DNA from: a virus
Taxonomy: Duplodnaviria > Caudoviricetes
Length of the DNA: 62,865 nt
Virus record (IMG/VR): IMGVR_UViG_3300011335_000874
Span: 1-62,865 of that record
Direction: 5' to 3' (one strand)
Part shown: in pieces, positions 19,428 through 60,172 of the stretch
Position numbering within the stretch: position 1 is the first letter of the stretch
How the letters are laid out: the number at the start of each line of letters is the position of its first letter
Made by a program: the position numbers and the translations under genes
The notes under the pieces: generated by a model
The model's input: only the letters and a program-made list of their open reading frames with translations
What the model was told of the DNA's origin: nothing
Databases searched by the model: none

Positions 19428-20429
19428 ATGTCATCATTCAAAAGATTAAACAAGGCGGATGTTACTACAGTAGATTATTCTGCTAATAAACGATGGAATT
19501 TTTCCTTTACCTCAACAGCTACAGGAAGTATAACATTCTATAGAGGTACCAATCAATCTTTTAGTATAGGTGAATCAACTATTAATGGAGAATATCCATC
19601 ATTAGTGTATAGCTCTATTAATCATTTATTTTACCAATCCTATACAGGAAGTTTAAATACAGGTTCATTAATGTTTAATGTAAACACTTATGAATCTGCT
19701 TCTAGCAATCGCCCAACTTCTTCTTACTTTATATATAATGCTAACCCATTATTAATTAAACAGTTCCCAACAGGAGCTAGTGAAACTATTAATGTATTAG
19801 GTGTTGATCAAAAAGTATTTGGTTCCAAAGTATTACCAAATAGTATTAATATATCATCCTCTGGCTTAATTATAAGAGATGATGGATATGGAAATTTATA
19901 TGATATTAGTGGAATAGAAGATGATTATATTAATTTATCATATATCACTAACCAATATTTTGTTGATGCTACCCCAGATGGAGTAAAATTTGTAGGAAAC
20001 GTATTTTATGCTCATGGATTAATAGTACTAACTAACCAATCCTCTTCATATCAAAATCTATTATCTAATACCTTTTCATCTACAGCTAATGTATCTTTTC
20101 AAAATGAATACATTGTTTATGAAAATGAAGTTCGATGTATAGTACGTGAAAGTGATTTTAATTTATCATACAACCCAACATTATTAAAATACGGAAACAA
20201 ATATATAGTACCTATATCAGGTAGTGCTAGCAATGGATATACAACAACAGGTTCCTTTGATAATACAACTGTTAAAGATTTTGCTACTGGATCAGTATTT
20301 CAACCTTATGTCACAACAATAGGTTTATATAATGATGACAATGAATTATTAATGGTTGCTAAATTAGGTAAACCAATAATGTTATCGCCAGACACAGATA
20401 TGACTTTTATTGTTAAATACGATACATAA
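19428..20429 (+). CDS. baseplate/tail-collar structural protein, paralog of 18441-19424
   Basis: C-terminal VTTIGLYNDDNELLMVAKLGKP; FNxxxNP motif shared. Confidence 0.6.
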   Translation: MSSFKRLNKADVTTVDYSANKRWNFSFTSTATGSITFYRGTNQSFSIGESTINGEYPSLVYSSINHLFYQSYTGSLNTGSLMFNVNTYESASSNRPTSSYFIYNANPLLIKQFPTGASETINVLGVDQKVFGSKVLPNSINISSSGLIIRDDGYGNLYDISGIEDDYINLSYITNQYFVDATPDGVKFVGNVFYAHGLIVLTNQSSSYQNLLSNTFSSTANVSFQNEYIVYENEVRCIVRESDFNLSYNPTLLKYGNKYIVPISGSASNGYTTTGSFDNTTVKDFATGSVFQPYVTTIGLYNDDNELLMVAKLGKPIMLSPDTDMTFIVKYDT

Positions 20430-21100
20430 TGATAAAATTAGTAACCATATTAAAAGAAATGGCTATCTCAAATGCTTGGTCAGGGGAGAAGGGAAAGTTA
20501 GGAGCGGAAACTGATACAGTAATAAAGGCAGCTACAGCAATGGGATTAGATAACCCTGTACTTTGGAGAGGAACAAGAGGAGTAAAAGTACCAGGTCAAC
20601 GCACATCAGTTATACAGCGTATTATGCGTATAACTCCTAGAGAGAATCCATCGTTTAGAGGTGGACATGAAAACGCAAAGAAAATATTACAACTACTTGG
20701 AATAAACCAACCTATATTTGCTCATTTTGATAGAGCAATGACAGAGTTTTTTGGAACACCATGTGTTATAGTACTGGAACAACCATATATAATGTATCAA
20801 TCATCAAAAATTGATGATATAATGGCAGGTACAAGTAATTGGGAAACTGAATATACACAGAGTAATAGTGGTACATTAGGAAGTAGCAAATTTAAAGAAA
20901 AAACAGAACAAGATCTTCAAGATACCGCTAATACGTATAAACAAATAAATGGCAAATCAGAATATAATACTGAAAGTGGCAGTCCAAGAGAGGTTATAGT
21001 TGATGCTACAAACTATTGGGCTATACCTTGTGGATCTGAAATTAAAACATACGGTGATTTAGTAGATTTATTAGAATCATATAAAACTAAATTTGCATGA
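20429..21100 (+). CDS. MIKL-tagged protein, ADP-ribosyltransferase-like
   Basis: MIKLVTILKE; VLWRG and a late REVIV resemble ART catalytic strands. Confidence 0.4.
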   Translation: MIKLVTILKEMAISNAWSGEKGKLGAETDTVIKAATAMGLDNPVLWRGTRGVKVPGQRTSVIQRIMRITPRENPSFRGGHENAKKILQLLGINQPIFAHFDRAMTEFFGTPCVIVLEQPYIMYQSSKIDDIMAGTSNWETEYTQSNSGTLGSSKFKEKTEQDLQDTANTYKQINGKSEYNTESGSPREVIVDATNYWAIPCGSEIKTYGDLVDLLESYKTKFA

Positions 21101-21750
21101 TCAAGTTAGTAGACATATTAAACGAACTAAATATCCAGTCTAAACTTAAATTAGGAACAGGAAGTACATATACCACGTATCCCTCATCATTGCAACCAGA
21201 TAAAGTTATTAAAATCTTAAATGATGAAGATGAAGGAAGTCTTGATGAACATTATTATTTATTCATTAAATATCCTAAATATTTTCCTATAGTATATAAG
21301 AAGACAGATAAATATATGGTTCTTGAAAAATTAAATACTCAAGTAGTTAGAGATTATAATAATAAAATTATAAAATTAGCTAAAGAAAAATTAACACTTG
21401 AAAATCCTGAATTACCTGAAGGTATTAGAGCAGAATATATCAAAACTCCACATTTTCAAAAAGGCGCAACTTTAGCTAAAATGCCTATAGAATATTACCT
21501 TGAATTTCTAGACCCAGAAAAAACACAATACACAGACTTAGGTGATTTAGATGATATTAATTGGTTAGTTAAACAAGATCCTGAATTAGCTCGTATTACT
21601 AAAGAATTACATGAACTAGAAGAAACAGTTTACCAAATTTTACAAAAAGAAGGTATTGAAGGAAATGGAGAAGGAGGCCGCCCAGATACGGCTGGATATA
21701 ATAATATAGGAATGGATACTCAGGGTAATTTTAAATTTTTAGATTTTTAA
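21097..21750 (+). CDS. MIKL-tagged protein kinase-like protein
   Basis: LGTGSTYTTY Gly-loop, VIKI, MVLEKL hinge, D...NNIG, FLDF. Confidence 0.7.
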   Translation: MIKLVDILNELNIQSKLKLGTGSTYTTYPSSLQPDKVIKILNDEDEGSLDEHYYLFIKYPKYFPIVYKKTDKYMVLEKLNTQVVRDYNNKIIKLAKEKLTLENPELPEGIRAEYIKTPHFQKGATLAKMPIEYYLEFLDPEKTQYTDLGDLDDINWLVKQDPELARITKELHELEETVYQILQKEGIEGNGEGGRPDTAGYNNIGMDTQGNFKFLDF

Positions 21751-21766
21751 TTAAAAATAAGTTATT

Positions 21767-22207
21767 ATGAATTGGTTATATCAATACGTCCCACTACGGG
21801 ATGATTTTACTACGAGCGATTATGGTTTTATTTATAAAATCACTAATTTAGAGACAAATAAATTTTACATTGGTAAAAAATCATTTGTCCACAACAAGAA
21901 GAAAAAACTCACCAAAAAAGAAATAGCTGAACAAACAGGTCCTGGACGTCGTTCCACTACCAAAGTAGAACAAATCGATAGCGGTTGGCGTAATTACTGG
22001 GGTTCATCTAAAGAATTATTAGCTGATGTTAAATTACTAGGTAAAGATAAATTTGAACGTGAAATACTAAAGTTCTGTCCTACTAAAAAACAACAAACAT
22101 ATTACGAAGTACATTACCAAATACAATACTCAGTATTGTTTATTGATAGTTACAATGATAATATACAAGGACGTTTTTTTAGAAAAGATTTTGTTACGGC
22201 AGAATAA
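21767..22207 (+). CDS. GIY-YIG nuclease family protein
   Basis: GFIYKITN...FYIGKK, YWGSS, FEREIL, YNDNI. Confidence 0.85.
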   Translation: MNWLYQYVPLRDDFTTSDYGFIYKITNLETNKFYIGKKSFVHNKKKKLTKKEIAEQTGPGRRSTTKVEQIDSGWRNYWGSSKELLADVKLLGKDKFEREILKFCPTKKQQTYYEVHYQIQYSVLFIDSYNDNIQGRFFRKDFVTAE

Positions 22208-58951: not shown

Positions 58952-59289
58952 TGATCAAATTACAAAACATATTATTAGAAGCAGTTGCTTTAGATAAAAT
59001 AGATGTATTAATTAAAACATCTACTGGTATTAATAAAGTAGAAATATACAATCAGATTAGAGCGCTTACTGGTGTTGTTGTTGTAACTATAGAACAAAGT
59101 GAATTTTTAGATAGTAAAGCAACAGATAGATTTGAATATTCATTGTTACATATGAAATATATTGTAACATCTGATCCTAAAACAGCTATTGATAAAATTA
59201 AAGTAGATGCCCTAGTAACTACTAGAATACCTGGACTATTACAATTTATTCCAAGATATAAAACAGCTCAAAACGTAGGTAAATACTAA
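58951..59289 (+). CDS. MIKL-tagged small protein
   Basis: MIKLQNILLE; IRALTGVVVV. Confidence 0.7.
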   Translation: MIKLQNILLEAVALDKIDVLIKTSTGINKVEIYNQIRALTGVVVVTIEQSEFLDSKATDRFEYSLLHMKYIVTSDPKTAIDKIKVDALVTTRIPGLLQFIPRYKTAQNVGKY

Positions 59290-59825
59290 TGGCATTATAC
59301 GGCGCAAATAGAGATATTAGTCTATTTAGACATTTAAATAGAGAATTGATCAATAATATTATTGAGCAGAAGGTAGGATATTATAAAATTGCTTTAGATA
59401 AATCATTACCAAATATGTATGGTGAATCTACTAAAAAAATATATAATGATCCTGTACTATTAAATTGTTTAATTGAAAGAGGTGATACTGATCCTAAAAC
59501 AGATGAGTTTGGTATGGATATTACTCGTACCATGAAATTTAGATTTTTGCGAGACGACTTAGCAGGAATAGATTTAAGTACAGACCAACCAGCAGATGGA
59601 TTAGGATTCACATATAATATAGTACCTGAAGTAGGTGATGTTATTTTATGGAATAATGACTATTATGAAGTAAATAATGCAAACGAAAACCAATTAATAG
59701 TAGGTAAAGACCCACTCTATTCATACTCAGGTAATACAGATAACTTTGGTTCATCTTGGTCTATAATAGTAGAATGTTTCTACATACGTCCAGAAAAATT
59801 AGGTATAGCACAACAAAGATTATAA
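59289..59825 (+). CDS. head completion/neck protein (gp14-like)
   Basis: NMYGES, PEVGDVI...YYEV; position after gp13. Confidence 0.7.
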   Translation: MALYGANRDISLFRHLNRELINNIIEQKVGYYKIALDKSLPNMYGESTKKIYNDPVLLNCLIERGDTDPKTDEFGMDITRTMKFRFLRDDLAGIDLSTDQPADGLGFTYNIVPEVGDVILWNNDYYEVNNANENQLIVGKDPLYSYSGNTDNFGSSWSIIVECFYIRPEKLGIAQQRL

Positions 59826-59827
59826 CA

Positions 59828-60172
59828 ATGATAAAACTTATAAGCCTTCTTAACGAATTAGGTAAACCAGAAAATATATATGCTCCTGGAGTAGATCCTG
59901 ACGCGCCATCTGATGATTTCCTACAGAAAGGATTTAGATTAAAAGGAACTACTATTGATCCTGAAACAGGGAAAATAGTTTCTGATGTAGAATATTTACC
60001 TGAGTTTGATAAAATTAAAATGGATATAGGCAACTTTGCTAAAACATTTAGAACATATAAGTTTAGTGCTGACCCTGATATAGCATCAGTAGCAACTAAA
60101 TTAGTTACAGCATTAAATAAAGCAGATCAATTAACTACTGTACTAAAAGAAATGATTAAGAACAGAAGATAA
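59828..60172 (+). CDS. MIKL-tagged small protein
   Basis: True start is probably MIKLISLLNE at 59828, inside track ORF 59756-60172. Confidence 0.7.
   Translation: MIKLISLLNELGKPENIYAPGVDPDAPSDDFLQKGFRLKGTTIDPETGKIVSDVEYLPEFDKIKMDIGNFAKTFRTYKFSADPDIASVATKLVTALNKADQLTTVLKEMIKNRR

Follow-up and report, generated by a model that had tools for sequence, protein, structure and literature searches.

A candidate T4-type capsid targeting leader on ten proteins of an uncultured aquatic phage

We examined a short N-terminal leader that is shared by ten otherwise unrelated proteins encoded in IMG/VR record IMGVR_UViG_3300011335_000874, a stretch of 62,865 bases (hereafter the window) with a G+C content of approximately 30%. 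The window is a fragment of an uncultured T4-type phage from water, with a CheckV completeness estimate of 39%. The leader has the consensus M-I-(K/R)-L-x-(D/E/N)-(I/L)-(L/V)-x-E, and the comparisons described below make it likely that it is a diverged T4-type capsid targeting sequence (CTS), the signal by which T4 loads its head-internal proteins. The ten tagged proteins are probably packed into the virus particle. By analogy with T4, the hydrophobic leader would bind the scaffold core of the assembling prohead, and any protein bearing it would thereby be built into the head. The S77 protease would then cleave the leader off behind the Glu of its final (L/I)-x-E, freeing the mature protein inside the capsid, where it would stay with the DNA. 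Some of the tagged proteins would probably be ejected into the host together with that DNA.

A preliminary description of the same DNA had proposed that the leader combines a T4-like address with a cleavage signal. Support for this proposal is indirect and comes from several sides. The leader has the register of the T4 ipII and ipIII starts, 54 of 56 ORFs (open reading frames) that begin with its first four residues keep [LI]xE, and the genome encodes the head machinery. In addition, the untagged counterpart of one tagged protein in Flavobacterium phage vB_FspM_immuto (hereafter immuto) starts at the predicted cut, leaders are swapped on homologous bodies, and the leader stands before 75 clusters of bodies among the matches listed.

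A shared leader on unrelated bodies

All ten leaders that had been described are present in the sequence, at the starts of ORFs that lie on the + strand. They are MIKLVTILKE (20429), MIKLVDILNE (21097), MIKLISIVKQILME (23975), MIKLIDILRE (28299), MIRLIDILKE (29723), MIKLTEILDELLTE (29974), MIKLIDLLNE (31044), MIKLAELLGE (35720), MIKLQNILLE (58951) and MIKLISLLNE (59828). For nine of the ten, the MIKL ATG is the earliest ATG, GTG or TTG in the open frame. The frame of ORF 59828 opens at a TTG at 59756, but the MIKL ATG lies 2 nucleotides past the stop of the upstream gene and the orthologs start there. When all six frames were searched, MI[KR]L was found 14 times, heading 10 ORFs of 82 to 340 residues and 4 frames of 6 to 16 residues. 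Ten of the 84 genes called in the window are tagged, compared to 0.06 expected from composition, and the pattern I[KR]L..[IL][ILV].E was absent from the interior of the window's proteins (0 in 19,945 residues). Because each of the ten tagged ORFs has homologs elsewhere, we regard all of them as real genes.

Conservation of the leader is at the protein level, and the variation in its codons that had been pointed out earlier holds. Isoleucine 2 is encoded by ATA in five cases, ATC in three and ATT in two, and leucine 4 by TTA in seven, CTA in two and CTT in one. Mean pairwise nucleotide identity was 0.71 over the 30-nucleotide tag, 0.35 over the 30 nucleotides upstream and 0.29 over the 30 nucleotides downstream. 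The bodies behind the leader are unrelated, as had also been claimed: from residue 15 onward no pair matched with E < 0.01. When the profiles of the 20429 and 28299 families were compared, the alignment covered 11 leader columns and nothing else.

The motif [LI]xE closes the leader at residues 8 to 10 in nine of the ten tagged ORFs and at residues 12 to 14 in ORF 23975. We avoided circularity in evaluating this motif by picking 56 distinct ORFs on residues 1 to 4 (MI[KR]L) alone, drawn from the window itself, from two complete relatives and from the loci that surround the capsid gene. Within this set, leucine was present at position 4 in all 56, D, E or N at position 6 in 48, I or L at position 7 in 52, L, I or V at position 8 in 53, and E at position 10 in 43. 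An [LI]xE ending at residue 5 to 16 was found in 54 of the 56 ORFs vs. 30 of 90 control ORFs. It ended at residue 10 in 37 cases, at residue 9 in nine and at residue 6 in five, and the two ORFs without it are not leader-like. Ortholog leaders of altered length (MKLxNLILE, MGLLGKILLNE, MIKLLE...) still contain [LI]xE.

The leader recurs in phages related to the window. The closest cultured relative is immuto (MW353175), with a capsid identity of 58%, and closer relatives are available in IMG/VR (capsid identity 57-83% for the best 78 loci). Among the IMG/VR matches listed (80 loci), 68 loci encode at least 137 ORFs of at least 50 residues that begin with the leader. Adding the ten from the window gives 147 tagged proteins, whose bodies form 75 clusters, including 53 singletons. 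At E <= 1e-5, Pfam families were assigned to 20 of these 137 ORFs: Zeta_toxin/AAA_33 kinases in six, DUF5872 in three, DUF5824 and NtrZ in two each, and ADPrib_exo_Tox (in the related contig L119), LysM with lysozyme, Hydrolase_2, RNase_T, SET, NUDIX and DUF6934 in one each. The Pfam domains of tagged ORFs start 3 to 16 residues past the leader. All of the clear enzymes with a leader occur in related contigs, and none is in the window. In a viral sample the leader DNA pattern stood at ORF starts in 94 of the 105 matches listed, with two or more in 15 loci; in cellular genomes it did so in 10 of the 80 matches listed, and no locus had two. An S77 protease is encoded by 10 of 20 pattern-bearing viral records, most of which are fragments, and by two of the three complete ones; the third (G015) has no tagged ORF. 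Related genomes hold two to nine pattern matches each, and those of 164-181 kb hold two to seven, vs. ten tagged genes in the 63-kb window. One complete relative of 181 kb (G021, the IMG/VR record behind L180) has six matches to M-I-K-L-x-x-h-h within 4 kb (154895-158875), which looks like a cassette of tagged genes.

The boundary between leader and body is visible in the family of ORF 23975. The alignment of the immuto ortholog (immuto26A_182) with the window protein begins at window residue 15. The ortholog starts MGGNVF, which corresponds to the position just behind the Glu of the window leader's ...ILME, and its frame opens just 4 codons upstream of MGGNVF. With a tagged body in the window and an untagged one in immuto, the same enzyme therefore exists in both forms, and the point at which they differ coincides with the predicted cut. 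Exchange of leaders is evident among homologs of the 20429 body. These bodies align with one another (alignment A2), and their N-termini are of the MIKL type, MKTFREFFCE, MIRFKEYISE, MKYIKEFNTFITE or MNKQELKQLIRE, or the leader is absent. MKTFREFFCE and MIRFKEYISE are near T4's own leaders. Immuto, whose host is Flavobacterium sp. LMO8, carries three MIKL-like and two scaffold-like leaders; its leader-bearing genes lie at 24569 (MIKLIDLLTE), 103366 (MISIYNILKE), 101270, 25061 and 111675 of MW353175.

The T4 capsid targeting sequence and alternative explanations

The signal with which we compare the leader is well described in T4. In the accounts cited here, the first ten residues of internal protein (IP) III suffice for loading, positions 4 and 7 serving targeting and positions 8 and 10 processing, and the protease gp21 cuts after L/I-X-E (PMC9026906). 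The CTS directs proteins into the scaffolding core, after which it is removed (PMC10229621). T-even internal proteins are portrayed as diverse, with the CTS as the one feature they share (PMC3012670); for the CTS of IPI, IPII and IPIII, the source cited in PMC9026906, PMC3012670 and PMC10229621 is Mullaney and Black 1996. The ADP-ribosyltransferase (ART) Alt is also reported to be packed in the T4 head core, where its propeptides are cut by gp21, and to be ejected into the host (PMC9026906). In the T4 record, ipII and ipIII start with MKTYQEFIAE and ipI with MKTFKEF...ITE.

Like the T4 CTS, the leader described here is a ten-residue N-terminal peptide on otherwise unrelated proteins, and the two agree in register with the published positions: in each, positions 4 and 7 are hydrophobic, position 6 is acidic, position 8 is I or L and position 10 is Glu, and both end in L/I-x-E. 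The window has homologs of gp20, gp21 and gp23 together with a gp22-like scaffold, and its tagged bodies resemble the T4 internal proteins, as these have been described, in being diverse and turning over rapidly. However, MIKLxDILxE and MKTYQEFIAE have Met1 and Glu10 as their sole identical positions of ten, and the hosts are Flavobacterium-type bacteria rather than enterobacteria. The tagged genes are also scattered among tail, replication and head genes, and the earlier statement that the system is on a larger scale than in T4 is fair for the window, which has ten tagged genes in 63 kb whereas T4 has three IP genes plus Alt. Further differences from T4 are that enzyme families which can be recognised bear the leader in relatives, that at least one additional leader class, which copies the scaffold C-terminus, is present, and that loading is here a prediction from the sequence. 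The two leaders MIRFKEYISE and MKTFREFFCE, as intermediates, hint at a continuum between the MIKL leader and the T4 CTS, although ten residues cannot prove common descent.

Two other systems bear on the comparison. Alt has a parallel in the MIKL-tagged protein with an ADPrib_exo_Tox domain in L119, but no protein of the window reaches a curated ADP-ribosyltransferase cut-off, and ORF 28299 gives weak ART-clan signals. The giant phages phiKZ, 201phi2-1 and SPN3US have many head-internal proteins that are reported to be cut after Glu by a gp21-related protease (PMC9026906, PMC5694885), and their N-terminal propeptides are thought to target the prohead. In contrast to the one portable ten-residue tag found here, those propeptides are described as mostly longer than 100 residues, with an S/A-x-E motif and no single shared short tag. 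An abstract-level literature search found no description of such leaders outside T-even and giant phages.

We weighed three other explanations for the leader. The first accepts prohead targeting and removal of the leader but regards the tagged proteins as parts of the assembly itself, comparable either to the accessory core or scaffold proteins gp67 and gp68 of T4 or to a minor head protein such as gp24. They would be degraded, expelled or kept as structure and would not serve as effectors in the host. According to the published accounts, the T4 core proteins and gp24 likewise have N-termini that are cut by gp21 (PMC5694885, PMC9026906). Most of the ten bodies have no enzyme signature, and ORFs 58951 and 59828 are small conserved head-neck genes with orthologs in 38 and 26 related loci, respectively. 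However, we consider this explanation unlikely, as the leader is found in relatives on clear enzymes (Zeta-toxin-type kinases in 6 of 137 ORFs, ADPrib_exo_Tox, LysM-lysozyme, Hydrolase_2, RNase_T, SET and NUDIX) and the bodies turn over quickly, with 53 of 75 clusters being singletons, unlike conserved parts; both counts are among the matches listed.

A second explanation, to which we give a small chance, is that the leader is an amphipathic or hydrophobic helix with some other job, such as docking to a chaperone or partner, membrane association or marking proteins for turnover, with no packaging and no cutting by the head protease. The peptide is indeed short and hydrophobic, with six of its ten positions mostly hydrophobic, fused relatives of 23975 have a similar stretch in their interior, and tagged genes adjoin replication genes. 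Packaging of the tagged proteins is, moreover, a prediction from the sequence. However, such a helix leaves unexplained why Glu is kept after I/L even when the length of the leader changes, why the leader matches the T4 CTS position by position, and why T4-type leaders stand on homologous bodies. It also leaves unexplained the leader class taken from the scaffold C-terminus and the link with S77-encoding phages.

Finally, it is very improbable that the shared 30 nucleotides act at the level of nucleic acid, as a start context for hosts without Shine-Dalgarno sequences or as a homology patch for cassette shuffling, with the peptide as a by-product. In its favour, the leader codons are AT-rich in a genome of 30% GC, translational coupling to the preceding gene applies to nine of the ten tagged genes, and tagged genes form cassette-like clusters in relatives. 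Against it, residues are kept while synonymous positions vary, the upstream sequence is not conserved (0.35 identity), and the 74 untagged genes among the 84 called have other starts. In orthologs, moreover, what leader variants preserve is the Glu and the hydrophobic pattern, not the bases, and no Rfam family matches in the window.

A role of the leader as a diverged CTS also has to be set against several observations that weigh against it. Contrary to expectation for cargo, the motif [LI]xE is not depleted in the tagged bodies (0.0127 per residue vs. 0.0139 in untagged bodies), and therefore there is no sign of selection against internal cutting. The leader of ORF 23975 is atypical, with Gln at position 10 and Glu only at position 14; in its fused relatives the same helix-like stretch is internal (...RKLILE followed by GGNVFG), and in this family the leader stretch could be part of the fold. 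Since the immuto ortholog has no leader, packaging is not essential to the role of this enzyme. Nine tagged genes share gene strings with primase and exonuclease genes, and a late-like motif of its own is found for one tagged gene; the tagged genes therefore need not be expressed late. The scans of IMG/VR and of cellular genomes used an exact leader DNA pattern and represent samples in an order that is not known, and the homolog searches for 23975, 28299 and 21097 were word-based, which favours matches that share the leader. In the literature, at the level of abstracts, we found no virion proteome, cleavage data or structure for the window phage or its relatives.

The tagged proteins and their genes

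When the ten tagged proteins were compared to Pfam, PHROGs and NCBIfam, almost no matches were obtained. The cargo labels that the preliminary description had attached to window proteins (ART, kinase, nucleotidyltransferase and metal-binding) find weak support, to different degrees for the different proteins.

ORF 20429 (20429..21100, + strand, 223 residues, MIKLVTILKE) belongs to a phage family with a conserved Arg47, a YQS stretch and a conserved Glu188. Homologs numbered 32 representatives by HMMER, aligned as A2, and no Pfam, PHROG, PDB or named Atlas family was found for it. The label of an ART-like protein finds no support here, as no ART hits were obtained. Its conserved R, S and E positions had been considered as those of an ADP-ribosyltransferase; Atlas gave no support, and comparison of its profile with the tagged ADPrib_exo_Tox protein of L119 returned a probability of 0.3%. 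ORF 21097 (21097..21750, + strand, 217 residues, MIKLVDILNE) has relatives that show a G-loop/VIK/LDF pattern. Its description as kinase-like is met by weak matches in relatives, to YrbL-PhoP_reg in two of six (E 0.0067) and to Kinase-PolyVal in one of six (E 0.0014), but the window member itself has no hit, and sequence and profile searches gave no significant PDB match.

ORF 23975 (23975..24946, + strand, 323 residues) has a 14-residue leader, MIKLISIVKQILME, followed by GGNVFG. The gene is conserved across the group, with 1709 homologous matches, and is preceded by ATATTTATA at 23949-23957. The proposed nucleotidyltransferase activity retains a lead from one Atlas cluster (score 0.95), in which 33% of members have NTP_transf_2, but there is no Pfam or PDB match. 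A GS...DIDL stretch in this protein presumably fits the nucleotidyltransferase motif. In some relatives (P0049, P0051 and P0054), an NMN-adenylyltransferase-like domain precedes the 23975-type protein in one fused chain, ...RKLILE abuts GGNVFG, and such fused forms possibly have an internal cut site at this junction. The gene that follows 23975 (24946, 1117 residues) has an adenylyltransferase motif, and its immuto counterpart is annotated as NadR-like. This arrangement suggests that 23975 and 24946 are a linked nucleotide or NAD-related pair.

ORF 28299 (28299..28793, + strand, 164 residues) starts with MIKLIDILRE followed by AKQVGPLYHFT, and has invariant Y18, H19, T21, R56, S85 and E122. 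It has 69 homologs, and the leader is at the start of nearly all of them. The label ART-like fits the relatives better than the window protein: sub-threshold matches were found in relatives to Tox-ART-HYD1 (4 of 37, best E 3.9e-4), Tpt1 (2 of 37) and DarT (1 of 37), but the window protein matches none of these families at E up to 0.1, and the PDB match to DarT1 has E 0.28. The ART fold is thus a lead for this family.

The next three tagged genes lie close together. ORF 29723 (29723..29971, + strand, 82 residues, MIRLIDILKE) has a body with four Cys and three leader-bearing homologs among the sampled IMG/VR loci. ORF 29974 (29974..30384, + strand, 136 residues) starts with MIKLTEILDELLTE, which contains two LxE sites, and is basic and DUF5872-like; it matches Pfam DUF5872 at 7.7e-5, below the cut-off, and phrog_23735 at 3.7e-16. 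ORF 31044 (31044..32066, + strand, 340 residues, MIKLIDLLNE) has two CxxC pairs. Its C-terminal part matches phrog_7595 and has a homolog in an immuto protein that starts with MIRLQE. The candidate grouping of 29974 and 31044 into one body family was rejected, as they clustered through intermediates only and have no direct similarity. As for metal binding, the label corresponds to the Cys pairs visible in 29723 and 31044.

ORF 35720 (35720..36271, + strand, 183 residues, MIKLAELLGE) has two tagged homologs among the IMG/VR loci listed. Its residues 17-99 resemble the interior of an immuto protein of approximately 840 residues (MW353175 114006-116531; tblastn E 5e-5), which is encoded just upstream of the terminase region. 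The last two tagged ORFs are small conserved genes of the head-neck module. ORF 58951 (58951..59289, + strand, 112 residues, MIKLQNILLE) has 38 homologous ORFs around the capsid gene; in its orthologs the leader Glu10 is invariant (25 of 25 aligned) while residues 2-9 vary. ORF 59828 (59828..60172, + strand, 114 residues, MIKLISLLNE) has 26 homologous ORFs, and these homologs start with MIKL... or MKL..I(I/L)KE. These two proteins may be structural or core parts rather than effectors.

All ten tagged genes had been said to lie downstream of late motifs. This applies directly to one of them, ORF 23975, which has ATATTTATA immediately upstream, but the other nine are 1.0-7.1 kb downstream of the nearest copy of the motif. 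These same nine genes abut the preceding gene (-4 to +2 nucleotides), and the gene strings in which tagged genes lie also hold a primase (22226), an exonuclease (23161) and a GIY-YIG endonuclease (21767). With ATATTTATA far from nine tagged genes and replication genes in the same strings, the late-motif clause does not separate tagged from untagged genes. The motif itself occurs 11 times on the + strand (4895, 11934, 17723, 23949, 34709, 45421, 46024, 47650, 49578, 57021 and 57739), each time in an intergenic gap just before a gene start, among them those of terminase, portal, neck and baseplate genes. Its total count is not above chance (12 vs. 9.4 expected), but its placement is striking; it is a candidate late promoter element.

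Head machinery and further leader classes

As the preliminary description had stated, a gp21-like protease and capsid N-terminal LLE/LVTE sites are present in the window. The gp21-type prohead serine protease (Peptidase S77) is encoded at 53028..53654 on the + strand. It matches Pfam PF03420 at 1e-32, with 113.7 bits against a curated cut-off of 27, and PDB 5jbl, the T4 prohead core protease, at E 5.9e-19. The alignment to 5jbl places His in ELDHPE and Ser in GISSRG (Ala there in the crystallised chain), which we take to be the catalytic residues. It is followed by a gene for an acidic scaffold-like protein (53806..55260, + strand, 484 residues, 16 [LI]xE sites), so that the gene order protease-scaffold-capsid is as in T4, where the scaffold is gene 22. 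Conserved stretches of the scaffold-like protein are LSEILAE and LEELLAE in its interior and ...RMQKLANIIK at its C-terminus. The immuto protein named 'DNA polymerase phi-like protein' (L219 10731-11972; MW353175 125626-126867) is a homolog of this acidic scaffold and is encoded between the protease and capsid genes; its name is probably an artefact of the acidic low-complexity region.

The gp23-type major capsid protein (55287..56948, + strand) matches Pfam Gp23 at 3.4e-75 and PDB gp23 chains at about 1e-29. A conserved propeptide-like region spans its residues 1-59 and contains [LIV]xE sites at residues 8, 34, 50 and 59. Among 82 N-termini of the group, L-x-E is found at residue 8 in all 82, LLE at residue 34 in 80 and [LIM]LE at residue 50 in all 82. 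At residue 59, the eight commonest variants, which account for 61 of the 82, invariably combine V or I at P3 with Glu at P1. Because mature residue 29 of T4 gp23 aligns with window capsid residue 81, the mature N-terminus of the T4 protein maps near residue 53, between the window sites E50 and E59.

Other assigned genes include those for a gp20-type portal (47675..49570, + strand; Pfam Portal_T4 2.6e-68, above cut-off) and, from Pfam and PHROGs, a gp25-like baseplate wedge protein (9662), a gp6-like baseplate protein (10083), the large terminase (46053) and PhoH (57005). The + strand holds 60 of the 64 window ORFs of at least 100 residues. The terminase-portal stretch had no megablast match among phage records, and neither tRNA genes nor Rfam families were found in the window. 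Two genes of the GIY-YIG (SegE-like) homing-endonuclease type are present (21767-22207 and 39032-39625), one of them between tagged genes and the primase gene. Small paralogous ORFs stand in tandem at 2025-3220, and 3' ends and gene junctions are repeated (families D2, D5, D6, D7 and D11). An intergenic element, repeated at 137-210, 402-429, 615-638, 992-1065 and 1302-1375, consists of a G+C-rich hairpin followed by TATATTTACGTCAACCAAAAAATTAAAA. It precedes small ORFs in the first 2 kb, where G+C is higher, and the genes behind it have no leader. This element might combine a terminator with an early-type promoter.

A second kind of leader, MKKQINEIKRMQQLAGILNE, stands at the start of a 169-residue ORF (45433..45942, + strand) and resembles the C-terminal end of the scaffold. 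Leaders of this type are found once in the window, in both complete relatives (G001 and G002) and twice in immuto. The scaffold of the window ends in ...ITRMQKLANIIK (55216-55257), and the scaffolds of the window, of immuto and of almost all of the 59 orthologs listed have the motif R(M/W)Q.LA(G/N)I as their extreme C-terminus. A second leader class that copies the scaffold C-terminus suggests that N-terminal leaders of this phage group are directed at the prohead. For the MIKL class, no convincing model within the scaffold was found. The scaffold stretches LSEILAE and LEELLAE were considered for this purpose and set aside: they share L-x-x-(I/L)-L-x-E with the leader and are present in 60 of 60 scaffolds, but the pattern is a common one (0.0019 per residue).

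There may also be a third leader class. The N-termini of the proteins at 9298, 34737, 36271, 41015, 43569, 50468 and 51657 resemble amphipathic helices, end in [LIV]xE and are conserved in the G001 and G002 orthologs. Examples of such helix-like N-termini are ...LRKLIRE, ...RSIIAE and ...IRQQVDE, and one homolog of the 20429 body carries a helix-like leader, MNKQELKQLIRE. In 11 genes, vs. approximately 3.3 expected, residues 20-22 include the Glu of an [LI]xE.

If the MIKL leader does work like the CTS, a simple sequence rule would pick out the particle-borne and probably injected proteins of a large group of uncultured aquatic phages. Since injected proteins act before phage gene expression, these would be prime candidates for counter-defence and host take-over. 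As a second natural ten-residue loading tag, from another host group, the leader would be useful for packing foreign proteins into capsids, as with T4, and the existence of a cultured phage with such leaders, immuto, makes the CTS idea directly testable.

More tentatively, and with some doubt on our part, the leaders may form part of a capsid cargo code of aquatic Bacteroidota T4-type phages. In such a code, interchangeable short leaders (MIKL, scaffold-C-terminus and LxxLIRExxxE), each ending in a head-protease cut site, would load dozens of fast-changing enzyme families for first-strike delivery, and the MIKL leader and the T4 CTS would derive from one ancient signal. The families concerned would include kinases, ADP-ribosyltransferases, nucleotidyltransferases, NUDIX hydrolases and wall hydrolases. 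Were this the case, leader-based loading would be old and general across the T4 lineage and not a speciality of the T-even phages.

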